Source: a virus (taxonomy: Duplodnaviria; Heunggongvirae; Uroviricota; Caudoviricetes). Taken from it: 57,087 nucleotides of DNA. The notes under the pieces were generated by a model. That model ran no database searches, was not told the origin of the DNA, and was given only the letters and a program-made list of their open reading frames with translations. Location of the stretch: the IMG/VR virus record IMGVR_UViG_2561511241_000005, positions 1-57,087 of that record; one strand, 5' to 3'. Made by a program: the position numbers and the translations under genes. Shown here piece by piece: positions 1 through 24,285 of this stretch (within the stretch, counting starts at the first letter, position 1; each line of letters begins with the position of its first letter).

Positions 1-1200
1 ATGCTTACAGATACCAAATTACGAAACATCCACGGCAAGCCATATGACGGCCCGGAGGAAGTCCCGGACGCGGGCGGATTGTCTGCCAGGATAAGCCCGC
101 ACGGGGTTATATCTTTCCAGTATCGCTACCGATTCAACGGCAAGCCGCGACGGATGAAGATTGGCACTTACGGAGAAATAACACTCAAAGAAGCCCGCGC
201 GGCGGTGGCGGAGCATAAGGAGGTCTTAAACTCAGGACGAGATCCATCGATCGTAAAAAGAATGAACTTGTCCCGCGTTACGACACGGGCAACAATTGAA
301 GATATTGTTAGGGAGTACATGGAATCACCGCAGGCAAGAAACATGGTCAACTATAAGCAAGTCGAGGCGATGCTAAGTAAGCACATTGTCAGACCATGCG
401 GTAGCTATATCGTCGATGATATGGACTCCATAATGTGGGAGGGGATTTTTAGAAAGGTAGCTAATGGTGGCGCGCCCGTTCAGGCAGGGATAGTCTTAAA
501 CAGGATGAAGGCGGTAATAAAATATGCCATGCGACGCCGCCGCGTGGAGCGTGACGACATATCATTGCTACGCGTGAAAGACGTAGGCAAAAACCCGGCG
601 CAAAGGAAACGCGTCTTATCAATACAAGAGATTCACCATCTAATCAGCATTATAGACAGTTCAAAAATGGCGCGGCTAAATCAGATATTGATGAAGCTGA
701 TTATATTCACCGGATGCAGAACAAGCGAACTAACAAACGCAAGGCGCGAACATTTCGATCTTGATAACTGCGTGTGGACCGTGCCGGGTGCATTGAGTAA
801 GAACAGAAATGAGTTTAAGCGCGGTTTATCCGACGTTAGCGTTGATTTATTGCGTGAAGCTATGGATTTGCACGGCTTTAATTTTATCTTCGTTCCCGTG
901 CTTTCTGGAAGGGATGAAGCGGTAGACAGGAGCGTGCCGAAAACAGCCGCAAGGGATTTGATGCTAAGGATGGGCGGCGAGCCGTGGTCGTGTCACGACT
1001 TGCGCCGCACTGTAAGGACAAACCTTTCAGCGCTTGGCATTGCGCCGCACGTAGCAGAAAAGGTTTTAGGTCATAAACTGGCGGGAATGATGGCTATATA
1101 TGATCAGTATGATTACGTGAAGGAGCAAATAGAGGCGATGAATAAACTGGCTGATTACTACATGAAGCCCATTGATTTACAAAATGAAATAACGTCCTGA
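1..1200 (+). CDS. int: P4-type tyrosine integrase
   Basis: 399 aa; N-terminus MLTDTKLR... typical of P4-like integrases; C-terminal HDLRRT...LGH...Y catalytic signature. Confidence 0.9.
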   Translation: MLTDTKLRNIHGKPYDGPEEVPDAGGLSARISPHGVISFQYRYRFNGKPRRMKIGTYGEITLKEARAAVAEHKEVLNSGRDPSIVKRMNLSRVTTRATIEDIVREYMESPQARNMVNYKQVEAMLSKHIVRPCGSYIVDDMDSIMWEGIFRKVANGGAPVQAGIVLNRMKAVIKYAMRRRRVERDDISLLRVKDVGKNPAQRKRVLSIQEIHHLISIIDSSKMARLNQILMKLIIFTGCRTSELTNARREHFDLDNCVWTVPGALSKNRNEFKRGLSDVSVDLLREAMDLHGFNFIFVPVLSGRDEAVDRSVPKTAARDLMLRMGGEPWSCHDLRRTVRTNLSALGIAPHVAEKVLGHKLAGMMAIYDQYDYVKEQIEAMNKLADYYMKPIDLQNEITS

Positions 1201-1376
1201 TAACGGTAAAGAGATCCGCCGCGCTTTAACGCTGGCATCCCATTAACAGGTTCAGGGAAAGGAGTTCCCGCATCTTTCCATTTTTTAACGAGCTTAAAAA
1301 ATGCGGACTTGCTAAGTCCGCCTAACATTTTTTGCACTTGCTCACGATTAATAAGGATTGTCCCGATCTTATCCAT
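1158..1376 (-). CDS. AlpA/Xis-like excisionase or transcriptional regulator
   Basis: 72 aa basic protein, convergent with and overlapping the 3' end of int; start overlaps stop of upstream gene (TAATG). Confidence 0.6.
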   Translation of the reverse strand: MDKIGTILINREQVQKMLGGLSKSAFFKLVKKWKDAGTPFPEPVNGMPALKRGGSLYRYQDVISFCKSMGFM

Positions 1377-2035
1377 TATCTTTTCCCCGTGTATTCAACG
1401 TGTCCGATACATCCATCAATAATTGCTTGCGCCATATTGCGATAATCGCACGAAAATTCGTTGTCGCGGTTAAAGTCAATCTCTTTTGCCGCATCCTCAC
1501 CAATAACCTTTGTAGCAAGCGCAAACGCAATTTGCGCCAGTGCTTTTTCTTTCGGATCAATATGAATTCGATACGAGTATTGTTTCCATGCAATCGGTGT
1601 TTCAATATCAGTTTCTAACTTACTGTGAGCAATAGACCACTTATCGCCAATGTAGAAAAACTTAACTACATCAATCACTCTATCACTTGCCAATCCAATA
1701 CAATCAAGCCACACGCCGCACGGCGGCTTTTCTCCCGGTTTCCATTCCGTAACTTCCGGCTTATCGCAATCATGCCGCTCATCTTCGATTAATTCATCAA
1801 TGATTTCACTTTCTTTATTCATGCCGTCATCATCCTTATTCGATAAATCATCGTATTTTTCAAATTTCCACCCTGAAGCCATAGCCGAATAAGTGCCGCC
1901 ATTGTCAGCACGAATACCCAATAAATAGTATGTTCCGAAATTATATTCTGTGCGGCATGTTGCCACCTCAAACGATGGGTAACACTCAGGGTTAGTGCGA
2001 TGGCTAATCACGCCAATTGCTTTAAGTTTATTCAT
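1376..2035 (-). CDS. hypothetical protein
   Basis: 219 aa ORF, operon-packed between a small ORF and xis-like gene. Confidence 0.6.
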   Translation of the reverse strand: MNKLKAIGVISHRTNPECYPSFEVATCRTEYNFGTYYLLGIRADNGGTYSAMASGWKFEKYDDLSNKDDDGMNKESEIIDELIEDERHDCDKPEVTEWKPGEKPPCGVWLDCIGLASDRVIDVVKFFYIGDKWSIAHSKLETDIETPIAWKQYSYRIHIDPKEKALAQIAFALATKVIGEDAAKEIDFNRDNEFSCDYRNMAQAIIDGCIGHVEYTGKR

Positions 2036-2049
2036 TTGCTTATCCTCAA

Positions 2050-2211
2050 TTACGCCACCGTTACATTGTCAACTTTGATAAAATATTCAGGATGGTTTTC
2101 TATTTCGTGCTTAAAGTGCGCATGACACAATCGCCAATCACGCGCCTGATTGTGAAAATAGTAAACGTATTCGCCATCAATCTTGTATAAAATGCCTGTA
2201 GGTTTAGCCAT
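2050..2211 (-). CDS. small hypothetical protein (53 aa)
   Basis: ATG at 2209-2211 (revcomp), TAA at 2050-2052; hand-translated MAKPTGILYKIDGEYVYYFHNQ...; fills gap between NinB and 219-aa ORF. Confidence 0.35.
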   Translation of the reverse strand: MAKPTGILYKIDGEYVYYFHNQARDWRLCHAHFKHEIENHPEYFIKVDNVTVA

Positions 2212-2225
2212 ATAATAACTAACCA

Positions 2226-2657
2226 TCATTGCCCCCAGCGTTTTATGAATTCCTCGTTTAATTTCGTATCACCCGACCATTGAACATCATGTTCAGCGCC
2301 GAACGAGTAAATCAATTCGATCAGTTCACTGAATTCTGATTTACTCATTCGACTTGTTGACGTTCCCAATACAACGAAGCCGGATTTATCCAGGTTAGGG
2401 ACGACGCCATATTTCTTAAGTCCGGCAGTGAATACCGCTTTCCAGTCTTCCGGTGACAGCTTTTTACCGTACCAATTAACCTGATCGCTAATGTCGGTTA
2501 ACAGCGCCCAAAGCAACGCATTTTGGCTTAGCGAGCGGGTTTTCTCCTGGATGGTAATTATCAGCGGGCTTTTGCTATCAGGCTGGATCTCTCTTATCTG
2601 CCTGATAGCATTTTCTTTCACGGCGTCGTTTACTATCTCAAATCTAATTTGCCTCAT
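2226..2657 (-). CDS. ninB: NinB-family recombination protein
   Basis: 143 aa; motif ...PLIITIQEKTRSLSQNALLWALLTDISDQVNWYGKK... resembles lambda NinB. Confidence 0.75.
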   Translation of the reverse strand: MRQIRFEIVNDAVKENAIRQIREIQPDSKSPLIITIQEKTRSLSQNALLWALLTDISDQVNWYGKKLSPEDWKAVFTAGLKKYGVVPNLDKSGFVVLGTSTSRMSKSEFSELIELIYSFGAEHDVQWSGDTKLNEEFIKRWGQ

Positions 2658-2851
2658 AATACACCGTTGCTATTTTTCCATTGTGCCCGTGCGTACATAA
2701 TCGCCTGCAAAGAAATTAGCCGCGAGCTTGTCATGAAAGCGCCTTTTAAATATTTCATGTCAACCGTGACAGGTTTATCAGGATCATCGCCGCGCATGTA
2801 TTCAGCAATAGTGCTTAAATCCTCCACGGTTAACTCCAAATCCTTGTTCAT
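2654..2851 (-). CDS. hypothetical protein
   Basis: 65 aa ORF, ATGA overlap with ninB start. Confidence 0.45.
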   Translation of the reverse strand: MNKDLELTVEDLSTIAEYMRGDDPDKPVTVDMKYLKGAFMTSSRLISLQAIMYARAQWKNSNGVL

Positions 2852-2860
2852 GATTCCCCC

Positions 2861-3067
2861 TTACACAATCCGCATTGTGTTTCGTAATTCACCACGCAGC
2901 GCCAGTAATGCATCGCGCATTGGCACGAAAACCCGGTTAAATTTTACGTGTTTATATTTCCGCATTAGTGGCGGTGTATACACCATTGCGTCGCATACTT
3001 CCCACGGATAATAAACACGCGTATCATCAACAAACGTTTCAACTGAATAAAAGATTACTCGTCTCAT
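2861..3067 (-). CDS. hypothetical protein
   Basis: 68 aa ORF in operon context. Confidence 0.45.
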   Translation of the reverse strand: MRRVIFYSVETFVDDTRVYYPWEVCDAMVYTPPLMRKYKHVKFNRVFVPMRDALLALRGELRNTMRIV

Positions 3068-3621
3068 AATTCTAACACCGTTTCCTCGTTAAGTTTTTCA
3101 ATCTCAAATACTGGTTTATCAGGTAGCAGGCCGTTATTTTTCCGGTATTCGTTCAGGCGGCTGTCAAAGTCAAACGCAAGATCATTAGCGTGACCAAAGC
3201 GACCAGGTTTAAACAGTGAGTAAAAATTAAGGCCGTGTTTATTGGTATCTATGCAAAGTGTTTCATCCAGTACCATTAAACGCAGCGTGCGCGAAAGATA
3301 ATTCCACGGAATACCAGTTTCCGCGCTAATGTCACGCATACGCTTTTTAACGCTGTAGTCACTAAATAATGCAGCCACACGATCGCGCCGTTGTGCATAC
3401 AAATATTTAATTCGATACCCCAATAAGCGGCGGCGCGGTCCGAAATATGTATATACACGCTCGACAATACCAGTATCAATCAAGTGTTTAATTGTCTCAG
3501 GCAAACATCCGGCTTCGTCATATTCCGCTGATAATCCGGTTTTCTGGCGTAGCTGGTGCATTGTTGCGATGCCGTCCAGTTCAAGGATATTGATAACTTT
3601 TGTTTCAAGTTCAATGCTCAT
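3064..3621 (-). CDS. hypothetical protein
   Basis: ATG at 3619-3621 preceded by GAGG RBS (MSIELETK...); track start at 3657 is GTG. Confidence 0.55.
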   Translation of the reverse strand: MSIELETKVINILELDGIATMHQLRQKTGLSAEYDEAGCLPETIKHLIDTGIVERVYTYFGPRRRLLGYRIKYLYAQRRDRVAALFSDYSVKKRMRDISAETGIPWNYLSRTLRLMVLDETLCIDTNKHGLNFYSLFKPGRFGHANDLAFDFDSRLNEYRKNNGLLPDKPVFEIEKLNEETVLEL

Positions 3622-3700
3622 TGTTTTTCGCCTCGTTTTAAGCGCGAAAACAGCCACCAGAAAGAGGTCAACTTTCCGGTAAGCCGTTTGCTCAAGTTAA

Positions 3701-5122
3701 TTAAAAAGATGCGTTATTCTGGTTATTTCGTGGGGAAAATCGGCTTGCTGCCGGACGTTGTTGCATTGACTGTATGCAGGCGGACGCCGCGCGTGCCTGG
3801 TCGCATGGTAAAATGTTGCCGTTATCGTCAAACCGCTGGTAAACAGTCCCCGTTTTCCCGTGACGGTTTTTTGAAACGATGATCTCCATGTATTCGCGGG
3901 CAACTGATTGTTCGTTGTAGTAGCCGTCGCGGTAGACCATGATGATCCGGTCTGCGTCTTGTTCAAGATTACCGGAATCACGCAGATCAGAATTGTTCGG
4001 GCGCTTGTTCGGTCGTTCTTCAACGCGGCGGGATAATTGCGCCAGCGCCGCCACTGGCACGCGCAACTCTTTCGCCATCATTTTCAATGACCACGACAAT
4101 TGCCCTACGGCGAGATCATGACGTTCGGCCTTAGCCAGCTTCATTAACCCGATGTAGTCAATCATTACCATTCCCAGGTTAGGATGATCCTGTTTCATCC
4201 GTTCGACGGTGGCGCGTATTTCCTCGACCGTTAACTGCGATGCGTCAACAATCCACACATCGAGATCGGCAAGGGCGCTCATTCCCTGGGCGACGTGCGC
4301 CCACCCTTCATCATCAAGTTTTACCGGATTGCGTAGGCAGTCGGTTGATAAATTACCAGCGCCAGCGATGGCACGTTCAGTCATCTGATCTAGTGACATT
4401 TCAAGCGTGAACAGTAAAACACCTACCCGCTGACCTTCTCCGCCAGGGTATGGACGTTCAGCCGCCGCGCGGGCAATTGCCAACGCCAACGCAGATTTAC
4501 CAGATCCAGGGCGTCCGGCGATAAGTACCAGATCAGTAGCGTTAATGCCTCCTAACATTTCGTCGAGTGGGTCGATCCCTGTTTTGATGTTGTCAGAGTT
4601 CACGCCACACTCCATGCGTTTACTTAACACTTCCGTGTACTCCTGTACCGCGTCGCGCAACAGCACCGGAATAATCTTGTCTTTCGTTACTTTTAATTTT
4701 GAATACCGGGAATCAAAATATTTCATCGTCTCCCTGACAGCTTCAAGTGTCCCGGTCTCCAGGTTGTAGCGTATATCGTCCATCAGTTCCAACATCTGCC
4801 GCCGCTGATATTCCTCCTGTAATAGCGCGGCGTACCCCTTAAGGTTGGCGGCAGATGGACACGATCGCGCCGTTTGCATTAGCGGGACAAAATTTTCGTT
4901 ACCGATTTCATCACCGACCATCAGCGCGTCAATAAGGTTTCTGTTTCTGGCTTGCGCCCGGATTATCTCAAACGCTCGTTTATATAGTGGAATGGTGAAG
5001 ACTTCAGGATCGAGCGTAGCAAGAACATCTTGCGCGTTAGGAGTAAGACCGCCCAACAGGAGGCCACCTATCACAGCCGCCTCCCGTTCCTGGCGTAATG
5101 AGTTTACTTGCTCAGTCACCAT
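3701..5122 (-). CDS. DnaB-family replicative DNA helicase
   Basis: 473 aa; Walker A GRPGSGKS, DnaB-like N-terminal domain; GGAGG RBS upstream. Confidence 0.9.
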   Translation of the reverse strand: MVTEQVNSLRQEREAAVIGGLLLGGLTPNAQDVLATLDPEVFTIPLYKRAFEIIRAQARNRNLIDALMVGDEIGNENFVPLMQTARSCPSAANLKGYAALLQEEYQRRQMLELMDDIRYNLETGTLEAVRETMKYFDSRYSKLKVTKDKIIPVLLRDAVQEYTEVLSKRMECGVNSDNIKTGIDPLDEMLGGINATDLVLIAGRPGSGKSALALAIARAAAERPYPGGEGQRVGVLLFTLEMSLDQMTERAIAGAGNLSTDCLRNPVKLDDEGWAHVAQGMSALADLDVWIVDASQLTVEEIRATVERMKQDHPNLGMVMIDYIGLMKLAKAERHDLAVGQLSWSLKMMAKELRVPVAALAQLSRRVEERPNKRPNNSDLRDSGNLEQDADRIIMVYRDGYYNEQSVAREYMEIIVSKNRHGKTGTVYQRFDDNGNILPCDQARAASACIQSMQQRPAASRFSPRNNQNNASF

Positions 5123-5140
5123 TATGGCATTTCCTCCGGT

Positions 5141-6259
5141 TTACAGAATGGAATATTCAGGGTAATAAACAAAGCGCCCGATCTCCCCGTGATCAGGACT
5201 GTAAATTATTACCGCCGCCAGCCGCCGCGACCGCCAGCCGCCATTCGTTGAATAAGCGTCTTTGCCCGCTAACGTGCCGTGGTACTCAACAACGCCCAAC
5301 GATGATTCAATCAGCCGTTGGTGATGCCAGTGCCCGCAATGAGCGTAAACCGCCGATGACTTGCCGAAATCCTCCCGCCAGTCAGAGACGCACGCAGCCA
5401 ACAAATTTTCGGGTTTTTTGATAGTGTGCCCGTGATGATAGGCAAGGAATGTTTTGCCGTACTGTGTGTGGTGGACGATAGCAGGGGATACATCAACCGT
5501 CACACGCGGTTCATCTTCGTAAAAAGCCGCCAGCGCCGCACGTAGCCAAATCATCCCTGATTGGTCATGGTTGCCGGATAACACTTGGATCTCGACGTCT
5601 TTATGATTTAGTAACATCTTCCCGACCGCCCGCCGGACAGACCGGATAGCCACATAAACAAGTTTTGCGTAGCGGCTATCTTGATCAAGGATATGACCGC
5701 TTGTTGGTGTAACCGGGATCATCCCATCAGAATGAAGTAGATCCCCACCCAACAGCAAAACAGCTTTTTCAGACATTGGCGCAGCGCCTACCGCGTAGTC
5801 AAAGAAATCATTTAGCACGCGTTCAGCGATCCCGGTGTCGTAGCTCTCACCGCATTCAGCTTTATGAGCAAGCGCACCGATATGAAGATCGAATACCGGA
5901 TAAAGGGCCAGGCTTTTTTGGAAATCAATTTCAGGCACTGGCACGGCCTCCGCGCGTGGTATCTCTTCCGTGAAAGCGTCGCAAGCCGATTGCATTAGCC
6001 TTTCCATTTCGTCGCGATCACGGGATGTTTTAATCCAGCGCATAATCACATTGCCATCCTTATCGACTAGCAATGACTCGCCATTGACGCCAAAACCAGG
6101 TGCGCGGCGCGTGGATATTAAACCGCGCTTCGCCAGCCTTGCGCCCAGGCGTTCGACGTTGCGTTTTGCCATTCCATATTCTTCGGCTATTTGCTTGTAA
6201 GTTTTACCATTCTTGTATTCAGCGATCAGTTGTTCGTCGCTGATCTTTCTTTGTGACAT
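5141..6259 (-). CDS. HTH-domain protein fused to calcineurin-like metallophosphoesterase
   Basis: 372 aa; N-terminal HTH (KTYKQIAEEYGMAKRNVERLGARLAKRG); DLHIG, GDLLHSDG, GNHD, GHWHH phosphoesterase motifs; GAGGAA RBS. Confidence 0.7.
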   Translation of the reverse strand: MSQRKISDEQLIAEYKNGKTYKQIAEEYGMAKRNVERLGARLAKRGLISTRRAPGFGVNGESLLVDKDGNVIMRWIKTSRDRDEMERLMQSACDAFTEEIPRAEAVPVPEIDFQKSLALYPVFDLHIGALAHKAECGESYDTGIAERVLNDFFDYAVGAAPMSEKAVLLLGGDLLHSDGMIPVTPTSGHILDQDSRYAKLVYVAIRSVRRAVGKMLLNHKDVEIQVLSGNHDQSGMIWLRAALAAFYEDEPRVTVDVSPAIVHHTQYGKTFLAYHHGHTIKKPENLLAACVSDWREDFGKSSAVYAHCGHWHHQRLIESSLGVVEYHGTLAGKDAYSTNGGWRSRRLAAVIIYSPDHGEIGRFVYYPEYSIL

Positions 6260-6292
6260 AACGTTATTTCCTCAGGTTTACATTTTGTATAT

Positions 6293-7012
6293 TTAACCAC
6301 AAACGAATAATTTAGTTATCCATGCTTGGCCCTTAGCAGTGAATAACGCTTGCTCATATCCATCGAAAGTTAATTTCATCTCGCCGTATCCTTTATCAAT
6401 AAACCATTGACTAAATACACGACGACGACAACGAAGATCATAAACTCCAACAGCTTCGAGCTTTCTGTTTAATTTAATCGCAGACATTCCCAGCGCTTTT
6501 CCGACTTCTGAAGCCGTGCGGTGCATGTCGTTTTTAACAATGGCATCACAGACAGCCGCTTTTGGCGCAAGCTGTTTATTAACCAGTGCAAGCCGTTCCT
6601 TTTCCTCAGCAAGATCGGCAGCAAGGCGCAACGCTTCGCTTAATGTTTGAGGAATTGCAGGAGTGTTTTGCTGTACCCGTTTTTCAAGTTCAAACCATCG
6701 ATCAATAACAGCCGTCCGGCGCTTGATGTCGTAGCCAGTTATTAAAATCTCAGTGTATCTTCTATCGAGAAGATATTCCCAGCTATTCGGATTGTTTTTA
6801 TCATATTGATTGCATATAACTGATTGATTTGTAACGTAACTCAAATCTGATTTACGAATATAATCATCAGGTTTACCGCCTAACAATGCAGAAAGCATAA
6901 CGCGAATATCACGGCATACATTAAGATGTTTCTTACCAGTTAAATCTGCAATCTCACGCGATGACATTGTTAACACTTCATTCGCGCCATTAAGCGCCAT
7001 CAATTCAGACAT
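6293..7012 (-). CDS. Antirepressor (Rha-like N-terminus, KilAC-like C-terminus)
   Basis: ATG at 7010-7012 with GGAG RBS; EVLTMSSREIADLTGKKHLNVCRDIR Rha-like region and KilAC-like C-terminal region. Confidence 0.7.
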   Translation of the reverse strand: MSELMALNGANEVLTMSSREIADLTGKKHLNVCRDIRVMLSALLGGKPDDYIRKSDLSYVTNQSVICNQYDKNNPNSWEYLLDRRYTEILITGYDIKRRTAVIDRWFELEKRVQQNTPAIPQTLSEALRLAADLAEEKERLALVNKQLAPKAAVCDAIVKNDMHRTASEVGKALGMSAIKLNRKLEAVGVYDLRCRRRVFSQWFIDKGYGEMKLTFDGYEQALFTAKGQAWITKLFVCG

Positions 7013-7143
7013 TTTATTTTCTCCGTAAAACGCGCTACAACGCAAAAACCCACCGCGTAACCCACTTGTAAGGGTGCAGTGTCTTTTTTGCGCCAGAAGC
7101 GCAATCAGGTGGCTAATTTTCGATTTACAGACTGGTAGGTAGG

Positions 7144-7245
7144 TTATGGATTGACTAGAAGGAATAAGCCGCCGAACAAAGCGACATTAACAGCTATTGC
7201 CGCAGCTATGGCGAAAGCCAGGGCGAAAACGTGTTTACTATCCAT
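7144..7245 (-). CDS. micro-ORF encoding a 33-aa hydrophobic peptide
   Basis: MDSKHVFALAFAIAAAIAVNVALFGGLFLLVNP; GAGAGG RBS; preceded on the transcript by an inverted repeat. Confidence 0.3.
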   Translation of the reverse strand: MDSKHVFALAFAIAAAIAVNVALFGGLFLLVNP

Positions 7246-7378
7246 TTTAAAATCCTCTCTGTAACGCTCTCTAACGAGCTAATCGCAAAAAGGTAGGCAA
7301 GTGTAGCACCACATGCGATTTAGCTCGCTGGTGAGGTTGTTTTGTGGGTAATTTTGGATTTTTGCGGATCGTGGTTGG

Positions 7379-8446
7379 TCAAAGAACGCCAGCGCGCGTA
7401 TCACGTAGCGTTTTTGGTTTAAGCAGGAAATCAAGTGTCGCAGTGAAGCCATTGCCGAAGTAAAAATCTGAAGCCGTGTTTTTGAACGTTTCAAAGTAGG
7501 CGACAAAGCCGTTAATGCTTTTGTCTTTCAGGTAGTCAGTGAACGCATAGATCTTGCGTTCAAGATCCCGATCCAGTTCGGCAGGTGGTAACAGACCGTC
7601 AAACGTGCTGTTAAATGCTTCCACCACGTCGGCGGCGTTTACAGTAGCTGATAGCTTGCGCCATTGTTCAGCATCAGCCAGATACCCATCGAATTTAGTT
7701 ACCCGGCAAATGTTGATAGGCTTAGGTGTTCCACCACGGCTACGCCATTGCGTTAAAGCCCACTCAATTACTAACGTGATCTCATCCTCCGTATATGCCT
7801 TACGTGTTTTTGTTTCTGTCAGTAGTTCGATGAATGGCTTAGCGTCACGACATTTGCATCCTGCTTTTTCGTTGTAGAAGGCTAAGCAACGGTAAGCTGC
7901 CTCGCTTATCTGAAAGTAACCACCCTGATTGACCGTTTTTTGTTCATTTTCGCTAATACACGAAGTGTATATATCTTTTTCTATTTCTTCTTCTAATTCT
8001 TCTTCTAATTCTAATTCATGACCCTGACATGACCCGGTCATGACCCTATCATGACCTTTTGGCGTTGGGTTGATTAACTTTTCTAATTTGAATTGTTCTT
8101 TTGCTGCATTTATAGCAGCTCTGTAACCACTCTTAGAAGTCATTGATTGGTCCAGCCTTTTCAATAACTTTAAACAAGTTATGTGTCCTTGAGAACATTC
8201 AAATAAACCAATTTCGATGAAGTATTTCATCATTTCTTCTATACGTTTTTCAGTAGATCCGACGTTTCGCGCAATGATTCTCGCGTCATGTCGTAGGTCA
8301 AAAGTCAGATTGTGCTGATCTACGTCATAAGTAATTAATTCAAGGCAATACCAGTAAAGACCGTATCCTTCCAGGCCATAATCAAGCAAAACGTTTTGAA
8401 GTTTTTCGTCGCGGTTCGCATCGCTATCATGCTTAAACCACTTCAT
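7379..8446 (-). CDS. Replication initiation / replisome organiser protein (O-like)
   Basis: 355 aa; N-terminus MKWFKHDSDANRDEKLQ...GYGLYWYCLE typical of phage replisome-organiser N domain; GGAGGA RBS; contains iterons. Confidence 0.75.
   Translation of the reverse strand: MKWFKHDSDANRDEKLQNVLLDYGLEGYGLYWYCLELITYDVDQHNLTFDLRHDARIIARNVGSTEKRIEEMMKYFIEIGLFECSQGHITCLKLLKRLDQSMTSKSGYRAAINAAKEQFKLEKLINPTPKGHDRVMTGSCQGHELELEEELEEEIEKDIYTSCISENEQKTVNQGGYFQISEAAYRCLAFYNEKAGCKCRDAKPFIELLTETKTRKAYTEDEITLVIEWALTQWRSRGGTPKPINICRVTKFDGYLADAEQWRKLSATVNAADVVEAFNSTFDGLLPPAELDRDLERKIYAFTDYLKDKSINGFVAYFETFKNTASDFYFGNGFTATLDFLLKPKTLRDTRAGVL
8017..8056. repeat. Putative origin iterons: four direct CATGACC(C) repeats at 11-bp spacing inside the replication gene
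   Basis: CATGACCC at 8017, 8028, 8039 and CATGACC at 8050, flanked by AT-rich sequence and an acidic ELELEEELEEE-coding repeat. Confidence 0.5.
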
Positions 8447-8449
8447 AGA

Positions 8450-8704
8450 TCATTCCTCCGGCAGCATTACCAGGTAAACGTCATTTACCGGGTAAGGGTT
8501 ACAAATAAATCCTTTGTGTGTTAATCCGTCGATAGCAACCATTACCGTATTTACAGGAAGTTCACACATTTTTGCGATTTCTTGGTGTGACACCCTGGCG
8601 TGGCGGCGATTATCCGCCTTTTCTGCCAACGCCATTAAGACAAGTTTTTGAATCGGGCTGTTAAGTTCCACTTTCCAGGCCTCAGTCATCATGTGCATAC
8701 TCAT
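8450..8704 (-). CDS. HTH DNA-binding protein at the cro position
   Basis: ATG at 8702-8704 with AGGAGA RBS; 84 aa; HTH-like segment SHQEIAKMCELPVNTVMVAIDGL; first gene of leftward operon. Confidence 0.5.
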   Translation of the reverse strand: MSMHMMTEAWKVELNSPIQKLVLMALAEKADNRRHARVSHQEIAKMCELPVNTVMVAIDGLTHKGFICNPYPVNDVYLVMLPEE

Positions 8705-8821
8705 TGCTTTTTCTCCTATGGTTAAAATGAACGCGAGGGCGGGTATCCCATTAGCATTAGATAGCAGTGACTGACCGCTCAACAGATCCCGCCGTTGCGT
8801 GATATTTGTTTTTCGCTTCAC

Positions 8822-9011
8822 AGCGACACCGGGTTTTTAAAGAGCTTTTAAGGTATGTGCCTTTTTGTGCTTTCCATTATCTTTTTTCTTGCATCCTTGC
8901 AAGTATGGCCTTACCTTGTCTGCAAGTTTACAGAATGGAGTTTTAAGATCAAGGCTTGAAAAATACGTTTTGTGACTTGCGTCAAACTTTTTGAGGTTAT
9001 AGGGTAGCGAC
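8822..9011. promoter_or_regulatory. Divergent promoter/operator region between cro-position gene and CI-like repressor
   Basis: 190-bp intergenic region with repeated CTTGCA(AG) palindromic elements (8888-8927) and AT-rich promoter-like hexamers. Confidence 0.4.
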
Positions 9012-9659
9012 ATGAAAACAAAATGGTATGACTTAGCAAAGCAGCTTATGCGTGCGCAAGGCATGAGCCAGGATTCATTGGCGGATCTCATGGGGATCAC
9101 GAAAGGCGGCTTATCACACTGGCTGAATGGTCGCCGTGAGCCAAATCTTGAAGACATTGCGCGGATTATGCGGGCGCTTGGTCGTCGGCAATTCACTGTT
9201 ACACACGATGGAATGGTCATAGATGATTCTGTTTCTAACACGTTACCGGGCGCGCCACCGCGTGATTTAGGCAGTTACCCGGTTGTTGACTGGAAGGACG
9301 CAGTAAACAATATGGAAGATACAAGGCGATCAACATTACCACACGTTACAACTAGCGTTATTTGTTCAGATGATAGTTATTGGCTGGTAGCTAAAGGCGA
9401 ATCAATGAACGCGCCGCAAGGATTGAGTATACCAGCTGGGACGATGATACTTGTCGATCCGCACGCGCCAGCTATTGACGGAAAACTGGTTATAGCCCAA
9501 CTGGAGGAAGGGCAAACGCCTACGTTTAAACAGCTTGTTATTGATGGAGGTCAAAGGCTTTTACGTTCGCTCAATCCGCTGTATCCGCCAATCCCTATGA
9601 ATCCAGAATCTAAAATCATAGGTGTGGTAGTGGACGCGAAGATCGTAAACCTGCCATAA
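9012..9659 (+). CDS. CI-like repressor (HTH-XRE N-domain, S24 LexA-like peptidase C-domain)
   Basis: 215 aa; HTH near N-terminus; GESM (Ser) and TFKQL (Lys) self-cleavage dyad motifs. Confidence 0.85.
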   Translation: MKTKWYDLAKQLMRAQGMSQDSLADLMGITKGGLSHWLNGRREPNLEDIARIMRALGRRQFTVTHDGMVIDDSVSNTLPGAPPRDLGSYPVVDWKDAVNNMEDTRRSTLPHVTTSVICSDDSYWLVAKGESMNAPQGLSIPAGTMILVDPHAPAIDGKLVIAQLEEGQTPTFKQLVIDGGQRLLRSLNPLYPPIPMNPESKIIGVVVDAKIVNLP

Positions 9660-9665
9660 ATATTA

Positions 9666-9690
9666 GCCGCCGGATGGCGGCCTTTCTTTG
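9666..9690 (+). terminator. Rho-independent terminator after repressor gene
   Basis: GCCGCC-ggat-GGCGGC hairpin followed by T-rich run. Confidence 0.5.
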
Positions 9691-9783
9691 CCCGTAAAAT
9701 CACCAAAACGTAAACCAAAAACGGTTTTTATCATTTAAATATCAATGATATAGAAAATATTTTAAAAAAGTATACAAAATGGA

Positions 9784-9812
9784 TTGACTCGGTATATCAC
9801 AGGGCGTATATT
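9784..9812 (+). promoter_or_regulatory. PL-like sigma70 promoter
   Basis: TTGACT - 17 bp - TATATT; recurrent GTATACAAAATGG motif immediately upstream. Confidence 0.45.
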
Positions 9813-10066
9813 GCGAATCAAAGGAAGGAGGCAGGAAACAAAAAGCGCCTTCCTGGCACTTTAAAAATCAGGCTTAACACCTTGTCAACCGTGGAGTAAC
9901 TCCCCCGATGGGGGACCGAAAGCGGCACTGATAACAAGGCGCATGGGGTGTATAAAGCGTCACATCCCCCACGAAACCGCACGCAAGGCGACGAGTCAGC
10001 TTGCTTGGAGTGAGCAGGGTCACACCGGAAACGGCGATGATTGCGGGATTAGTTGAAAGATGTTAA

Positions 10067-10106
10067 GCCATTCTTTAACAATCTGGTCAGCCGCTGGAAG
10101 TGCGGC
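10067..10106 (+). promoter_or_regulatory. nut-like site (boxA-like TCTTTAACAAT plus boxB-like hairpin)
   Basis: TCTTTAACAAT at 10072-10082 matches boxA core; GCCGC-tggaagt-GCGGC hairpin at 10090-10106; located in leader upstream of N-like gene. Confidence 0.4.
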
Positions 10107-10162
10107 AATTAACGAAGATGATTTTTTATTAAGTATCATCAAGGATATAAGGAGATCAGATC

Positions 10163-10453
10163 ATGACAGTTACAATCATGTATGGCAAATGTGACAGTAA
10201 ACTGAATGCCAGGGAACGCAGAAGAATAAAAAGAGAAAACGAAAGAAAATCATCACCTGCAATTAATAAAACAGACAATGTGGATAAAGCTATTCGCTTT
10301 GCAAACGAGGAAAGATGCAAACCAAATAGCATTAAAGAACGTCGCAAAGGATCAGTAAAATGGTATACGGAAAACGAAAGCGGCAACTACTACCACGCAA
10401 CGCAACCACGCCAACTAGGTGAAAAACCCCTGGATAAAGTCCGCTACCATTAA
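10163..10453 (+). CDS. N-like transcription antiterminator (arginine-rich motif)
   Basis: 96 aa; N-proximal NARERRRIKRENERK arginine-rich motif; AAGGAG RBS; position downstream of PL-like promoter and nut-like site. Confidence 0.45.
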   Translation: MTVTIMYGKCDSKLNARERRRIKRENERKSSPAINKTDNVDKAIRFANEERCKPNSIKERRKGSVKWYTENESGNYYHATQPRQLGEKPLDKVRYH

Positions 10454-10483
10454 TACAAAATGTAAACAGCAGGAGGTGACATT

Positions 10484-10603
10484 ATGGTTATCGAGGCGCT
10501 TCAATTCAAACTGGCTGTAGCGGAAATGCTTCACGATGCCGAAATGTGGAGCGCCGCGAATAAAGCCTTATACGTAGTGTTAACAGCGAAGGAGATTAAA
10601 TAG
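10484..10603 (+). CDS. small hypothetical protein (39 aa)
   Basis: Strong AGGAGGTGA RBS; stop overlaps GTG start of erf. Confidence 0.4.
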   Translation: MVIEALQFKLAVAEMLHDAEMWSAANKALYVVLTAKEIK

Positions 10604-11238
10604 TGAAAACAGAGTTACACAAAAAGCTGTGGACGATTCAGCAAACGCTGAACGCGCCGAAAAATCAGCGTAATAATTTTGGCGGGTATAATTACAGGTC
10701 GGCGGAGGATATTCTAGAGGCGGTTAAACCACTGCTTCAAAATATCACGCTGACTGTTAGTGATGAAATCGTCCTGATCGGCAATCGCTATTATGTGAAA
10801 GCAACGGCGACACTAAGCGACGGTGAAGACGAAATATCGGTAACTGCTTACGCCAGGGAAGAAGAAAGCAAGAAGGGAATGGACGCAAGCCAGCTAACTG
10901 GCGCGACATCAAGTTACGCGCGAAAATATGCTTTGAACGGCTTATTCTGCATTGATGACGCAAAAGATCCTGATACTGATGCTTACGCGAAACAGACAAA
11001 TCAACAGCCGCGACAGCAGAAAAACCCGCCAAAACAACAGCAGCAGAAAGCGCCGCCAAATCCTGATGAAGTATTAGCACGTTTCTGTGATGCAGCAGCA
11101 AAAGCGCCTGACGCTAACAAGTTACGCGAGATCTTCGGCAAGTGCTGGAAGCTATTGCCTAAGGATTCAGAACAACAACAGAAAGCGAAAGACGTTTATG
11201 ACATTCGCTTAAAAGAGCTTAACGGGGAGATCAATTAA
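10603..11238 (+). CDS. erf: Erf-family single-strand annealing recombination protein
   Basis: 211 aa; NAPKNQ...GGYNYRSAEDILEAVKPLL...YYVKATATLSDGE...SYARKYALNGLF closely resembles P22 Erf. Confidence 0.85.
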   Translation: MKTELHKKLWTIQQTLNAPKNQRNNFGGYNYRSAEDILEAVKPLLQNITLTVSDEIVLIGNRYYVKATATLSDGEDEISVTAYAREEESKKGMDASQLTGATSSYARKYALNGLFCIDDAKDPDTDAYAKQTNQQPRQQKNPPKQQQQKAPPNPDEVLARFCDAAAKAPDANKLREIFGKCWKLLPKDSEQQQKAKDVYDIRLKELNGEIN

Positions 11239-11654
11239 TGAGTTTAAATTCAATCACGCTGGGCGGGAATATCGGTAATGATATGGAAGTGCGCTACACG
11301 CAAAACGGGAAAGCTATTGGTAGTTTTCCGTTAGCTGTAACGAATGGCTACGGCGATAATAAGCGGGTAATGTGGATCACTTGTCTGGTATTTGGTGAGC
11401 GTGCGGAAAAATTAGCGCCGCATATCCGCAAGGGTGGAAAGATAGTGGTAAGCGGTCGCCTGGATGTTCGGCAGTTTGACCGGAACGATGGCACGAAGGG
11501 GACGGCGGTCGAAGTGGCGGTTAATGAGTTCGAATTCATGAACGTCAACCAACAAGGCCAGCAGCAAGGCCAGCAGCAGAAAGCGCCGCCGCAGCAGCAG
11601 AATAATAACGGGAATAATCCGCCGATGGACTTCGACGACGATATTCCTTTTTAG
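11238..11654 (+). CDS. ssb: Single-stranded DNA-binding protein
   Basis: 138 aa; OB-fold SSB pattern, Gln/Gly-rich linker and acidic C-terminal tail DDDIPF. Confidence 0.9.
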   Translation: MSLNSITLGGNIGNDMEVRYTQNGKAIGSFPLAVTNGYGDNKRVMWITCLVFGERAEKLAPHIRKGGKIVVSGRLDVRQFDRNDGTKGTAVEVAVNEFEFMNVNQQGQQQGQQQKAPPQQQNNNGNNPPMDFDDDIPF

Positions 11655-11670
11655 AATCAATGTGTTAGCG

Positions 11671-11949
11671 ATGAGTGATTATCTAAAACCGCCACCGCCA
11701 CCACGAACAAAAGAGCAAGTATTAAAAGAAGCCCGTGATCAAATCGATCATGGGCTTTTTTTATGCGGCACGGCAGCGGATCGGATGGCGAAAAGATTTA
11801 GTGACCTGTACGCAAAGCAAATATGGTTCGACAACTGGCAGGTAAGTTTTTACCCACTGCAAAGAAAACCGGATATGCATTGGCCTGAATATGTCGATCC
11901 ACGTATGCGCAAATATCGCGGTCGTATGGGCCAGGTTATTAACGATTAA
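11671..11949 (+). CDS. hypothetical protein
   Basis: ORF with in-frame ATG; start uncertain. Confidence 0.45.
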   Translation: MSDYLKPPPPPRTKEQVLKEARDQIDHGLFLCGTAADRMAKRFSDLYAKQIWFDNWQVSFYPLQRKPDMHWPEYVDPRMRKYRGRMGQVIND

Positions 11950-11963
11950 TGAGGTATTAAATC

Positions 11964-12188
11964 ATGGTCGAAGATAAAGAAGTCGATAAAGAAATGCCGG
12001 ACGGTGCTGATGATCTTATTACTTTTAGCGGTGGTTTGTATGAATTCGAAACGTCTGCGGGTTGGCATGATCACTGGCACTTTCCAACGCGCAAGGAATT
12101 AAGCGAACGTAAATCATTTGGCGAGGATGCCGAACGACTGGCGAATAACAAATGGCTTGATAAATTCATTGCGGAGGGCGGGAAATGA
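11964..12188 (+). CDS. hypothetical protein
   Basis: 74 aa, GAGG RBS. Confidence 0.5.
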   Translation: MVEDKEVDKEMPDGADDLITFSGGLYEFETSAGWHDHWHFPTRKELSERKSFGEDAERLANNKWLDKFIAEGGK

Positions 12189-17451: not shown

Positions 17452-17572
17452 TAATGGCGCTTTACACCTTGTTAGCACGTATCCATTTTGTATACTTCAA
17501 GCAAACAAAATGCTCTTTAAAAATCCGGCAGCGCTGAAATGCGTAGAAATCACCTGAAAAGGAGAGAGCATT

Positions 17573-17749
17573 ATGCCTTTTGATAATTACCAATGGCATG
17601 ACGACTATGAACGAGAAAGCGTTATGCGTGCAATGTGCAATGTATGCAGCACGAAGAAAGGAGGCTGTAACGAGTGCAACGAATGCTTAGAACATTGGCT
17701 AAGGGCCGGACACGCCGAAAGGCTGAACGAAACAGAGAATCAAAAATAA
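17573..17749 (+). CDS. NinF-like small zinc-ribbon protein (58 aa)
   Basis: AGGAG RBS; CNVC...CNECNEC cysteine cluster; not in ORF track (<60 aa). Confidence 0.4.
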   Translation: MPFDNYQWHDDYERESVMRAMCNVCSTKKGGCNECNECLEHWLRAGHAERLNETENQK

Positions 17750-17763: not shown

Positions 17764-18369
17764 ATGCAAAACCCTAAAAAACCCATAAGACGCCGTTGCA
17801 AGTGCTGCGGCGTTTTTTTTGAGCCTAAATATCATAATCAAACGTGGTGCAGCGATGAATGTCTGGAAGAACTGAAGTTTGACCAGCTATGCCGCGACCG
17901 TGAGAAGGCTATGAAGGCTATGGAGCGGAAGAAACGCCGTGATAGCCAGAGGGAAGAACGCAACCGGAAGCGTAAACAGTTAAATCCGCGTAGTTATTGG
18001 ATCAAACAAGTTCAAAATGTATTTAACGCCTATATTCGCGAACGTGACGCGCGCTTGCCGTGTATATCTTGCGGGACTTACTACGGTGAGCAATGCGGGT
18101 GGGATGCAGGTCATTACAGGACGGTAGCCGCCGCCGGACATCTTCGCTTTAACGAGGATAATTGCCATAAACAATGTAGGCACTGCAACCAGACATTAGA
18201 CGGGAACATAGGAGGGTATCGCCCGGCACTGATTCGAAAAATTGGCCTCGCCAGGGTGGTGGCGCTGGAAAACAACAATGATACGCATAAATGGACGATC
18301 GCAGAATGTAAGGAGCTAATAAACATCTATCAGGCTAAATTGGACGCCTTAAGGAGAAAGGCAGCATGA
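17764..18369 (+). CDS. ninG: NinG/Rap-family recombination protein
   Basis: ATG 17764 with GGGGTGG RBS; about 201 aa; cysteine-rich CKCCG...C..C pattern and position before rusA. Confidence 0.8.
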   Translation: MQNPKKPIRRRCKCCGVFFEPKYHNQTWCSDECLEELKFDQLCRDREKAMKAMERKKRRDSQREERNRKRKQLNPRSYWIKQVQNVFNAYIRERDARLPCISCGTYYGEQCGWDAGHYRTVAAAGHLRFNEDNCHKQCRHCNQTLDGNIGGYRPALIRKIGLARVVALENNNDTHKWTIAECKELINIYQAKLDALRRKAA

Positions 18370-18773
18370 ATGAATATTCTTTTAGCCTGCCTTACCCGCC
18401 ATCGAATAATCGCTATTACCGACATTCGCGCGGTTTTCACTATATCAGCAAAGTGGGGAAGGAATACCGGGAGCAAGTAAGAGACATCATCGAGCTATTA
18501 AATTTAAACATTAACCTATCTTGCCGACTGGCAATCGCCATTTATGCCGCGCCGCCGGATAACCGGATCAGAGATCTGGATAATATCCCCAAATGCCTTT
18601 TTGACAGCCTTACTTATGCCGGATTCTGGACCGACGACGGTCAGATCGATTCTATAAAAATTGTTCGCTGCCGGAAGGCAAAAGGCGGGCGATTGTTTAT
18701 TAAGGTACGCGAGCGCGAAGACCTGTTACCGGATATTGACGAATACGCGACTAATATGTGGGGTGAGCAATGA
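18366..18773 (+). CDS. rusA: RusA Holliday-junction resolvase
   Basis: 135 aa; LPYPPSNNRYYRH...DLDNIPKCLFDSLTYAGFWTDDGQI...KGGRL matches RusA family. Confidence 0.85.
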   Translation: MNEYSFSLPYPPSNNRYYRHSRGFHYISKVGKEYREQVRDIIELLNLNINLSCRLAIAIYAAPPDNRIRDLDNIPKCLFDSLTYAGFWTDDGQIDSIKIVRCRKAKGGRLFIKVREREDLLPDIDEYATNMWGEQ

Positions 18774-18952
18774 AAAACGAAATTAAAGATCTGCAAATAG
18801 ATATTCAGCGTGACGAGCATGATTTAGCTACAGTCCGACAAATCCAGGCTTTTCATATGCGCGAATTGCTTGCATTGAAAGAGCTTGAGAGAAAGTTAGT
18901 TCAGTCTATTTCTGATCGTAAACACCTTATTGCTCGTTACGGGGGCAAATAA
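18770..18952 (+). CDS. hypothetical protein
   Basis: 60 aa coiled-coil-like ORF, translationally coupled. Confidence 0.5.
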   Translation: MKNEIKDLQIDIQRDEHDLATVRQIQAFHMRELLALKELERKLVQSISDRKHLIARYGGK

Positions 18953-19680
18953 TGAATCTGGAATCAATTCTTAAATTCCACTTCCCGAAATCACCGCGTT
19001 TGTCAGATGAAAGCCGGGGAACGTCCCCGGATGCGCTTAATACTACTGATGCGCTAACTGCCGCAGGAATGGCGCAATCGCGCGTAGAGCTTGGCTATAG
19101 CGCTTTTTTAGGGAAGATGGAACTATCACAAGCCGAAAAACATAAGGCCGTAGTTTTGCTTACAGAGCGTTTAAGGGCTATGGCAAAAGATTATGAATAC
19201 GTTATGGAACTGGACGAGGCCAAACGCAATGATCTCATTATTCTTGTTGCCGTTTTCGCGTTTCGGGATTACTGCCAGAGTGCAGCGACCGAAAAAGTTT
19301 GCCCTACGTGCTGCGGTCACGGGCATTTACCAAAACCATATGGCGAATACACATCAACAATTTGCGCACGGTGCGGCGGCAAAGGCTACGTTAAAAACCA
19401 TTGCCAACGTTGCAAGGGGCGCGGCGAAGTACCGGATAAAACAGCCAGCGAAGCGGCGGAAATGCCAGTATTCAAAACGTGCCAGCATTGCGGCGGGCGC
19501 GGGTACTCGCGTTTCCCTGTAGATCTCGTCCGGCAGGCGGTTAATCAGCTTGTTTTTCCGGTAAGCCGATCAACCTGGTGGAAGAAATACCGGGTTTTCT
19601 ATGAAGACGCCATAGCGGAGCTATTCAAAGAAGAGGCCCGCGCGGAAAGTGAGATTAAACGAGTGACACGGGGTGAATAA
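18952..19680 (+). CDS. Q-like late antiterminator candidate with four DnaJ-type CxxCxGxG zinc-finger repeats
   Basis: 242 aa; CPTCCGHG, CARCGGKG, CQRCKGRG, CQHCGGRG repeats; located after ninG/rusA. Confidence 0.45.
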   Translation: MNLESILKFHFPKSPRLSDESRGTSPDALNTTDALTAAGMAQSRVELGYSAFLGKMELSQAEKHKAVVLLTERLRAMAKDYEYVMELDEAKRNDLIILVAVFAFRDYCQSAATEKVCPTCCGHGHLPKPYGEYTSTICARCGGKGYVKNHCQRCKGRGEVPDKTASEAAEMPVFKTCQHCGGRGYSRFPVDLVRQAVNQLVFPVSRSTWWKKYRVFYEDAIAELFKEEARAESEIKRVTRGE

Positions 19681-19883
19681 TGGATAAGCTGGAAATAAAC
19701 GATCAGTTTGCTGTTATCTTATTTCAAGATAAAACAGGCGGCGCATGGTGTAAGAAAGTCACTGGTGCGGAAGCGCGTTTAATATTGGGTATGGCAAGCG
19801 CGTTAAATGAAGGCGAATTGCCAGCCATCCCTATTAAGCCTGTCAAAATTTACAAGCGGGGTGATGATCATGAAAATAATTAA
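19680..19883 (+). CDS. hypothetical protein
   Basis: 67 aa ORF. Confidence 0.45.
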   Translation: MDKLEINDQFAVILFQDKTGGAWCKKVTGAEARLILGMASALNEGELPAIPIKPVKIYKRGDDHENN

Positions 19884-20217
19884 TATTGGTTGGTTGTATT
19901 GCGAAAACTGCGACGACGACGGCATGGTCGTTAAGACTGAAAAAGGCTGCGGCTTCTTTCTGTATCAAGGAGATAAGTTTGTTTGTCCGCGATGCGGTGG
20001 TCATGGTGAGATAGAAATTATTGAAGATAACGCCGCAGCGCCAGAGCCAGAACGCATTGTTCTTGATGAAAAAATAAAAATTCATCCTGATTTATTACAA
20101 CAAATTATCGATCACGTATCGGCAGCCGCAATCTACAGTGATAACAATTATCAGCGTGAAATGAACGTCAAGCGTGCGCTTGAGCAGTATTTTAAGGGTG
20201 ACGATGATGAAGCCTAA
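19870..20217 (+). CDS. hypothetical zinc-ribbon protein
   Basis: ATG 19870 with GGGGTGA RBS; CENC...CPRCGGHG cysteine pairs. Confidence 0.5.
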   Translation: MKIINIGWLYCENCDDDGMVVKTEKGCGFFLYQGDKFVCPRCGGHGEIEIIEDNAAAPEPERIVLDEKIKIHPDLLQQIIDHVSAAAIYSDNNYQREMNVKRALEQYFKGDDDEA

Positions 20218-20982: not shown

Positions 20983-20986
20983 TAAT

Positions 20987-21208: not shown

Positions 21209-21209
21209 T

Positions 21210-21796: not shown

Positions 21797-21806
21797 CGGG
21801 GTAAAT

Positions 21807-22547: not shown

Positions 22548-22551
22548 CATC

Positions 22552-23014: not shown

Positions 23015-23016
23015 TT

Positions 23017-23232: not shown

Positions 23233-23241
23233 GGTAGTGTC

Positions 23242-23481: not shown

Positions 23482-23483
23482 AA

Positions 23484-23940: not shown

Positions 23941-23983
23941 AACACGGGGCCGGATGGCCCCATCAAACCAGAAGGGTGTAATT

Positions 23984-24283: not shown

Positions 24284-24285
24284 TT

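Follow-up and report, generated by a model that had tools for sequence, protein, structure and literature searches.

Gene order of an Escherichia coli prophage of the mEp021/mEpimmI group: an early region flipped relative to those of phages P22 and lambda

Phages of the mEp021/mEpimmI group infect Escherichia coli, and a survey of 48 of their genomes describes a 'conserved genome architecture' in which 50 core genes display high synteny (Negrete-Mendez 2025, PMC11893012). Isolates are of siphovirus morphology, depend on Nus factors, and are classed as non-lambdoid, i.e., as they form no viable hybrids with lambda; their integration sites are ydaM, abgT or mppA (PMC11893012). Immunity in the group is due to a repressor, Rep021. 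Antitermination is due to an N-like protein, Gp17, in which arginines 17, 19, 20 and 24 are conserved and which acts at three nut sites: nutL, upstream of gp15, nutR1, upstream of gp17, and nutR2, after a cytosine methylase. Of these, nutR2 is the most like nutL and nutR1 is the most variable (PMC11893012). Considered here is a 57,087-nucleotide (nt) stretch of viral DNA, IMG/VR record IMGVR_UViG_2561511241_000005, which at its full length, that is, from the start codon of an integrase gene (int) to an adjacent host gene (abgT), I call the window. The window very probably is an E. coli prophage of the mEp021/mEpimmI group, residing beside abgT, with a gene order that is invariant for that group and in which an early block of P22/lambda type is flipped. 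Work on Gp17 and nut in mEp021 by Valencia-Toxqui, from 2023 (Arch Virol 168:92; PMID 36795170), is said to have mapped nut sites and terminators and to include reporter assays.

An initial annotation of the window, based on its letters, held that this order differs from those of lambda and P22, and that it suggests a module inversion or else a distinct regulatory circuit. Searches of Pfam and PHROGs bear out nearly all of its gene identities, along with their strands, and the genes upon which the comparison is based, along with their immediate neighbors, are as follows.

1-1200, plus strand: int, a tyrosine integrase (Pfam Arm-DNA-bind_3, Phage_int_M and Phage_integrase), at whose ATG the window begins
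1158-1376, minus strand: xis/AlpA-like open reading frame (ORF) of 72 amino acids (aa), the last gene of the leftward operon; a weak assignment (PHROG 4745 'DNA binding protein', E=4e-4, and position beside int)
2226-2657, minus strand: NinB/Orf recombination mediator (Pfam NinB, E=1e-46), with 53% identity to the NinB of P22 and 52% to that of lambda
3701-5122, minus strand: DnaB-type replicative helicase (Pfam DnaB_C, E=1e-75), 57% identical to P22 gp12
5141-6259, minus strand: 372-aa helix-turn-helix (HTH) plus metallophosphoesterase protein (PHROG 704 'DNA repair exonuclease', E=2e-140)
6293-7045, minus strand: Rha/KilAC antirepressor (Pfam Phage_pRha and ANT), a variable cassette
7379-8446, minus strand: replication initiator (Pfam Lin1244_N/DUF4373 N-terminus)
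8450-8704, minus strand: 84-aa winged-helix gene (Pfam HTH_36), the first gene of the leftward operon
9012-9659, plus strand: CI-type repressor of immunity group I (Pfam HTH_3 and Peptidase_S24)
10163-10453, plus strand: N-like antiterminator, the Gp17 orthologue (PHROG 271 'N-like', E=2e-11)
10603-11238, plus strand: erf (Pfam ERF), 56% identical to P22 erf
11238-11654, plus strand: ssb (Pfam SSB)
11662-11949, plus strand: abc2, anti-RecBCD (PHROG 656)
17573-17749, plus strand: NinF-like gene
ending at 18369, plus strand: NinG (Pfam, E=1e-66)
18366-18773, plus strand: RusA (Pfam RusA)
18952-19680, plus strand: Q (Pfam Antiterm, E=2e-29)
about 25.7-26.9 kilobases (kb), plus strand: holin, lysozyme and Rz (Pfam Phage_lysozyme and Phage_lysis; mEp021 annotation)

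In P22, as annotated, the order is erf (-), c2 (-), 18 (+), 12 (+), ninB (+), ninG (+), 23 (+), 19 (+) and 15 (+). In the window, as located with tblastn against P22 and lambda, the order instead is NinB (-), DnaB (-), initiator C-terminus (-), repressor (+), erf (+), NinG (+), Q (+), lysozyme (+) and Rz (+). The first five of these anchors are a single block that is reversed in both order and strand relative to P22, while the last four are unreversed, and one inversion of the whole early region therefore is the simplest description. The synteny comparison with lambda and P22 that the initial annotation had proposed supports the module inversion that it had suggested as one possibility. To judge from these anchors, that is, the comparison shows the early block, abc2-ssb-erf-N-like-repressor on the one side and winged-helix-initiator-DnaB-ninB on the other, to be in P22 order but flipped with respect to the remainder of the genome. 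One breakpoint would lie within the nin region, between ninB and ninF, and the second would lie between xis and the distal recombination or accessory genes of the N operon. On a circular map, inverting the early region is equivalent to inverting everything else. Testing explicitly, by means of anchor genes, whether a single block inversion separates the window from P22 is an addition made here; within the open-access paper on the mEp group (PMC11893012), the words inversion, orientation, opposite and rearrangement are absent, and its gene maps carry the same information.

Several relationships pointed to by the initial annotation follow the same lines. NinB (2226-2657, minus strand) indeed is found apart from NinG and RusA (which extend to 18773, plus strand), and erf and ssb share the plus strand with all of the late genes. 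Homologues of P22 genes in the window are erf, abc2, a c2-type repressor, the gp18 C-terminus, gp12, ninB, ninG, Q (gp23), lysozyme and Rz, with the internal order of the early block shared between the two. As in P22 and also lambda, the repressor and N genes are co-directional and the replication operon is divergent. What sets the window apart from P22 is an early block inverted with respect to both xis and the ninG-Q-late genes, an int gene on the other strand, an additional, third nut site, the lack of any homologue of Cro, C1 or C3, and virion genes of siphovirus rather than P22 type. With lambda the window shares homologues of NinB, NinG, Q, Rz and J, a CI/N/Q logic with boxA/boxB nut sites, and an iteron array situated inside of the initiator gene. 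In lambda, however, Q is the end point of the cro-O-P-nin operon and xis-int is reached from the recombination genes; in the window both of these relations are swapped. The gene order, with its early block inverted versus int/xis and versus ninG-Q-late genes, is not that of a lambdoid phage, though a CI repressor along with N-type and Q-type antitermination all are found, as judged solely by homology (S24, PHROG N-like and Pfam Antiterm, respectively).

An alternative to inversion is stepwise mosaic assembly, in which a P22-like replication module was gained in the interval from int to the immunity region, and a separate gain on the opposite side brought in a recombination module. The left operon certainly is modular, as the Rha/ANT cassette, the N-terminal half of the initiator and the winged-helix gene all are swapped among phages possessing near-identical repressors. 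Integrases are of several types as well (47-100% identity among IMG/VR loci), int is reversed versus xis, and P22, by tblastn, lacks counterparts of ssb, Dam and RusA. Five anchors spanning both early arms nonetheless retain their P22 relative order and strands, so that independent gains would need chance to recreate that collinearity. In addition, abc2 still is found past erf/ssb, the place that abc1/abc2 occupy relative to erf in the PL operon of P22, and the immunity core (cro side, repressor, N) shares its topology with those of lambda and P22. I therefore view stepwise assembly as the less probable account, though one deserving of some weight.

Certain points do count against the reading of one inverted early block serving a lambda-type circuit. 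Protein similarity to P22 is just 31-57%, from which it follows that the inversion would be old, and an event that ancient is not told from stepwise module exchange with certainty. (NinG is 51-53% and Q is 31-34% identical to P22 and lambda proteins by tblastn.) Int is of a different type and itself is reversed versus xis, for which a single inversion does not account. Neither the leftward promoter, the operators, nor the Q-dependent late promoter is located with confidence in the window. No intergenic gap follows Q, which overlaps the next ORF, and the sole strong terminator preceding the holin gene is about 6 kb downstream.

A single inversion of the early region is still the reading that I favor, and the order that it describes is not peculiar to one sequence. 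A set of 42 IMG/VR contigs was recovered by means of the N-like protein, and over all 17 anchor genes, from int to Q, neither order nor strand differs in any of these 42 loci, as far as each sequence extends. With just a single, unverified sequence in hand, that order could in principle be an artifact of misassembly or of a strain-specific inversion in a lambdoid prophage, but nothing in favor of this was found. Its recurrence in 7 independently isolated phages, in the 42 IMG/VR contigs, and in 56 complete E. coli chromosomes refutes this idea, and I give it essentially no credence. Nor is it at all likely that gene identities have been misassigned, such that the NinB-NinG separation and the replication operon would be unreal. 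The xis-like ORF does have only a weak PHROG match and none in Pfam, the N-like protein falls below its Pfam threshold, and the gene in the position of cro is not Cro. For the anchors, however, misassignment is refuted: NinB, DnaB, ERF, SSB, NinG, RusA, Q, the S24 repressor and the integrase all are far above curated thresholds, and anchors also match P22 and lambda proteins directly.

Membership of the window in the mEp021/mEpimmI group can be seen from several directions. Bases 1-12000, compared by megablast with GenBank phages, match seven E. coli phages of one group, i.e., mEp010, mEp013, mEp021, mEp044, mEp515, mEp554 and MagusPhagus, at 71-87% query coverage and about 88-91% identity (for mEp010 and mEp044, 85-87% coverage at about 88% identity). 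By blastn the full genome of mEp021 (GenBank MH706966) aligns as one collinear, same-strand series that represents 76% of window bases at 80-91% identity, with order and strand shared by every anchor gene. A syntenic prophage is present in 56 of 5,426 complete E. coli genomes, with identical annotation order and a top identity of 91%, and nucleotide identity to any searched record is at most about 91%. The nearest of these prophages, that of E. coli N1286, has an integrase to which that of the window is 91% identical and sits between ogt and abgT. At the other end of the window is the following gene.

55642-57087, minus strand: host abgT (Pfam ABG_transport, E=3e-197), truncated by the window end and just beyond the right boundary of the prophage

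This abgT, directly past the tail-fiber gene, is 95-99% identical to abgT of 4,924 E. coli genomes. With a last ORF that is host abgT, and with the nearest prophage located between ogt and abgT, the window thus is an integrated E. coli prophage. Found together in the window are genome-wide similarity and synteny with the group, a Rep021-type repressor, the Gp17 arginines, three nut sites, and the abgT integration site. A scan of GTDB species-representative genomes for Gp17 relatives returned no matches.

The window and mEp021 also resemble each other in possessing nutL, nutR1 and nutR2, and in having leftward-gene islands of the same kind within their tail regions. They differ in that the window has the Rha/ANT antirepressor where mEp021 has a zinc-ribbon protein, lacks HNH endonucleases as well as a methyltransferase adjoining ninB, and carries approximately 1.9 kb extra after Q. 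The N-terminal domain of the window's initiator is of the DUF4373 type, in common with phage MagusPhagus but differing from mEp021, and its winged-helix gene is just 33% identical to mEp021 gp14. The arrangement as a whole is nevertheless already known: it is the standard published layout of the mEp021 group and not a new kind of system. The novelty that the initial annotation had implied does not hold up given that this layout is invariant in a published group for which Rep021 as well as Gp17/nut regulation have been characterized experimentally. The annotation itself had allowed that related, well-characterized phages with the same order and known regulation would remove any claim to novelty, and such phages do exist.

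Regulators of the window are especially close to those of mEp021. Its repressor is 98% identical (211/215) to Rep021, versus 41% to P22 c2, and its N-like protein is 97.9% identical to Gp17, with arginines, as seen in its translation, at positions 17, 19, 20, 21 and 24. Against the Pfam lambda N family, PF25694 (N_peptide), the N-like protein scores 16.9 bits (E=0.009), i.e., below the gathering threshold of 27.9. Given the 98% and 97.9% identities, the published functions of Rep021 and Gp17 very likely apply to the window as well. Nut sites were located using the sequence together with the position statements of PMC11893012; these predicted sites and the other predicted control elements are as follows.

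8808-8847, minus strand (leftward transcript): nutL, with boxA GCTCTTTAAAAA, spacer CCCGGTG and boxB TCGCT-GTGA-AGCGA
9666-9681, plus strand: intrinsic terminator downstream of the repressor gene (mEp021 t1), GCCGCCGGATGGCGGC then CTTTCTTT
9784-9812, plus strand: predicted early rightward promoter, PL-like in function, TTGACT-17-TATATT, with 10 of 12 consensus matches
10068-10106, plus strand: nutR1, with boxA CATTCTTTAACAA, spacer TCTGGTCA and boxB GCCGC-TGGAAGT-GCGGC
17510-17542, plus strand: nutR2, with boxA TGCTCTTTAAAAA, spacer TCCGGCAG and boxB CGC-TGAAAT-GCG
25677-25695, plus strand: terminator (t5 of mEp021), hairpin ACCCGGCACCGCGCCGGGT then TTTT, directly before the holin gene

The terminator after the repressor gene is TERM_1 of the mEp021 annotation and is kept in the alignment of relatives. 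Across 10 aligned relatives the hexamers of this early rightward promoter do not change; its spacer varies among phages that share an immunity. The order which the initial annotation gave for the plus strand thereby stands: repressor, promoter, nut-like site, N-like gene, erf, ssb, nin genes, Q, lysis and structural genes. The repressor's operators were not assignable, a perfect palindrome at 8888-8903 (CTTGCATCCTTGCAAG) having no counterpart at the rightward promoter. Between Q and the pre-holin terminator is about 6 kb of small ORFs (19680-25720), inclusive of the approximately 1.9 kb that is absent from mEp021, and a search for a Q-dependent late promoter found no convincing site, just a weak -10-like TAAAAT before the terminator at 25677. 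As read from the sequence at 8998-9014, the repressor ATG (9012) is not preceded by a convincing Shine-Dalgarno sequence, and a -10-like TATAGG is found 8-9 nt upstream. The repressor maintenance transcript may be leaderless, as is lambda cI mRNA expressed from PRM.

The three nut sequences recur at the same places in mEp021, with nutR2 there found after TERM_4 and the cytosine methylase. In the window the nutL pattern is unique save for nutR2, which matches the boxA plus spacer of nutL at 16 of 18 positions; nutL is kept in 40 related sequences and nutR1 and nutR2 each are kept in 43, with the 5' part of the nutR1 boxA being variable. Particularly, nutR2 is located in the gap between the accessory genes and ninF-ninG-rusA-Q, that is, at the right-hand junction of the inverted block, a positioning which is a further addition made here. 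We can infer that the extra nutR2 would help N-modified polymerase to reach Q, which is about 9 kb from the promoter and in what, relative to lambda, is the 'wrong' operon. A promoter-like match found upstream of nutR2 (17469-17496) was given no weight because the scan yielded fewer promoter-like sites than did shuffled sequences.

Directly 5' of the nutR1 boxA, in the leader of the N gene, there also is an insertion of 214 nt (9853-10067, plus strand). This insertion is present, as one copy each, in 30 E. coli prophages and in 4 of the 7 isolated phages, is about 96-99% conserved where present, and in alignment is absent from four IMG/VR loci (L008, L010, L046 and L048). Relatives without the insertion have a perfect rrn-type boxA, TGCTCTTTAACAA. 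Presence in only some relatives, right beside boxA, explains the published remark on nutR1 variability. Within it is a further boxA-like sequence (9856-9872), and inverted repeats of 13 nt are found at its ends. The insertion varies little in sequence and folds marginally better than do shuffles of it (z=-1.9), and the N leader has no credible Rfam family at E<10.

The gene immediately across the control region from the repressor, which the initial annotation had described as a 'cro-position regulator', appears to be something else. Over profile positions 1-69 this 84-aa gene matches PHROGs 4617, 6643, 270, 391 and others, which are 'replication initiation' or O-like; its best lambdoid matches are the N-termini of replication proteins; and from mEp021 both gp14 and the initiator gp13, at its N-terminus, match it. 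A true Cro must recognize the same operators as its repressor. The 84-aa gene instead is 34-92% identical among IMG/VR loci whose repressors are 93-100% identical. It does not co-vary with the repressor, in other words, and for that reason behaves as a part of the replication module. Lacking as well any homology to Cro, the gene, going by these matches, is a stand-alone copy of the N-terminal winged-helix domain of an O-type initiator and not a Cro homologue, and no other candidate ORF for Cro is present between it and the repressor gene. Assigning the first gene of the leftward operon to the replication module rather than to Cro is the third of the additions made here.

The C-terminal part of the initiator has counterparts in mEp010 and P22: by tblastn, residues 179-355 share 93% identity with the 'O' protein of mEp010, and the last 87 aa (269-355) share 35% with the P22 gp18 C-terminus. 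Window positions 7891-8710 do not align with mEp021, the 84-aa gene and the N-terminal half of the initiator changing together. Such joint exchange, occurring under near-identical repressors, implies at least two replication-specificity types within one immunity group. Between the N- and C-terminal parts of the initiator gene a repeat search found the following element.

7985-8094, inside the initiator gene: origin-like element, with four CATGACC iterons at 11-base-pair (bp) spacing (8016-8056), flanked by TTCTAATT AT-rich repeats

As the lambda ori similarly lies inside of gene O, this iteron element likely is the window's replication origin.

The remainder of the leftward operon is more or less as initially described. 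The initiator, antirepressor, HTH-phosphoesterase, DnaB-type helicase and NinB all are present, though these are not its 'only' contents, as the operon additionally carries ORFs of 197, 68, 65, 59 and 219 aa, the first of them MarR-like, plus a 33-aa membrane peptide. The translation of the 372-aa protein contains the metallophosphoesterase motifs DLH, GGD, GNHD and GHWH, its N-terminal Pfam HTH match is weak, and a PDB sequence search with it returned no significant match. The Rha/ANT antirepressor does not align with mEp021 and is absent or divergent in most IMG/VR loci. The xis-like ORF, along with ORFs of 219, 59 and 262 aa, has no Pfam match even at E<5. That the operon runs into xis/int is correct for the weakly assigned xis-like ORF but not for int, which is on the plus strand and converges upon the operon, with a 43-nt overlap between int and the xis-like ORF. 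Inside of the latter is a strong terminator-like hairpin, GCGGACTTAGCAAGTCCGC then ATTTTTT (1303-1321, minus strand). It was considered as an N-dependent control point, i.e., as 1321-1303, and was dropped: the hairpin is absent from all 47 other related sequences and, being found in this window alone, probably is not functional.

Downstream of abc2 the plus-strand accessory genes include a Dam methylase, and beyond the lysis genes are those for the virion, along with their interruptions.

28617-55492, plus strand: packaging, head and tail genes (Pfam TerS, TerL, portal, DUF6260 capsid, tape measure protein, J and S74 tail fiber)
38716-39018, minus strand: leftward island within the tail genes
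about 41860-42621, minus strand: leftward island within the tail genes
43443-44305, minus strand: leftward island within the tail genes
52568-52951, minus strand: leftward island within the tail genes

The claim of one long rightward series is therefore correct overall, but with four small leftward islands interrupting the tail genes. The last of these encodes a Cor-type superinfection-exclusion lipoprotein, and adjoining it on the plus strand is a gene of PHROG 425, a membrane-associated 'moron' protein. The region from 42 to 44 kb has a GC content of 0.41, below that of the rest of the window. Neither an Rfam search of the whole window, at gathering thresholds, nor a tRNA/tmRNA scan yielded, respectively, a credible family or any such genes.

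A short motif dispersed about the window deserves description as well. This is an 11-bp dyad, TACAAAATG(G/T)A, with pattern TACARAAYGKA and core TACA-AAA-TGTA. The pattern occurs 10 times in the window versus 0.29 expected, a count reached by none of 100 shuffles, and allowing for one mismatch there are 21 matches versus 2.6 +/- 1.6 expected. About 15 of those 21 fall within a few intergenic gaps, among them those of both early operons.

5142, 6279, 8929, 9773, 10454, 13862, 13886, 17418, 17482, 39411, 39436, 39465, 42762, 44528 and 52884: starts of 11-bp dyad sites

Among these sites, one directly adjoins the -35 of the early rightward promoter, another is in the repressor control region and a third is just past the N stop codon; two more are on either side of the gap preceding nutR2, a cluster is ahead of the tape-measure gene, and single sites are beside leftward islands. 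The sites are syntenic in mEp021, in mEp010, in the N1286 prophage and in all of the IMG/VR loci analyzed. The motif is absent from P22, lambda has three near matches, each with one mismatch, and a full-text literature search for the motif returned unrelated matches only. Their mixed orientation argues for a DNA-level dyad site over an RNA signal. If a phage regulator did bind the dyad, this would be a control layer not described for the mEp021 group or for lambdoid phages. Two conjectures may be considered together, with it being rather doubtful that one or the other is correct. Either nutR2 arose through the inversion, as a near copy of nutL at the junction which would have restored N-dependent access to a ninF-ninG-Q segment that had been cut off from the replication-side nut, or the 11-bp dyads are the genome-wide sites of a phage regulator.

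From homology and the published work on mEp021, a circuit can be proposed. The CI-type repressor would shut two early promoters, the first leftward, within the 8705-9011 control region, and the second the rightward promoter (9784-9812), which is situated past the terminator where the repressor transcript ends. Upon derepression, the rightward transcript would make the N-like Gp17, which together with host Nus factors would load at nutR1 and nutR2, such that transcription would cross the recombination and accessory genes, a distance of about 9 kb, and reach Q. Loading at nutL as well, Gp17 would extend the leftward transcript over the replication genes as far as ninB and the xis-like gene. Q then would activate lysis and morphogenesis.

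The consequence of the flip is that the N-side operon, rather than the replication operon, would feed Q, with replication genes, rather than recombination genes, found upstream of xis, and with int transcribed separately, from the opposite strand. The window adds to the mEp021 group one more member, of about 90% identity to known ones, and no new principle. What it exemplifies, as already is visible in published genomes of that group, is that a lambda-type CI/N/Q circuit tolerates a flip of its entire early region.

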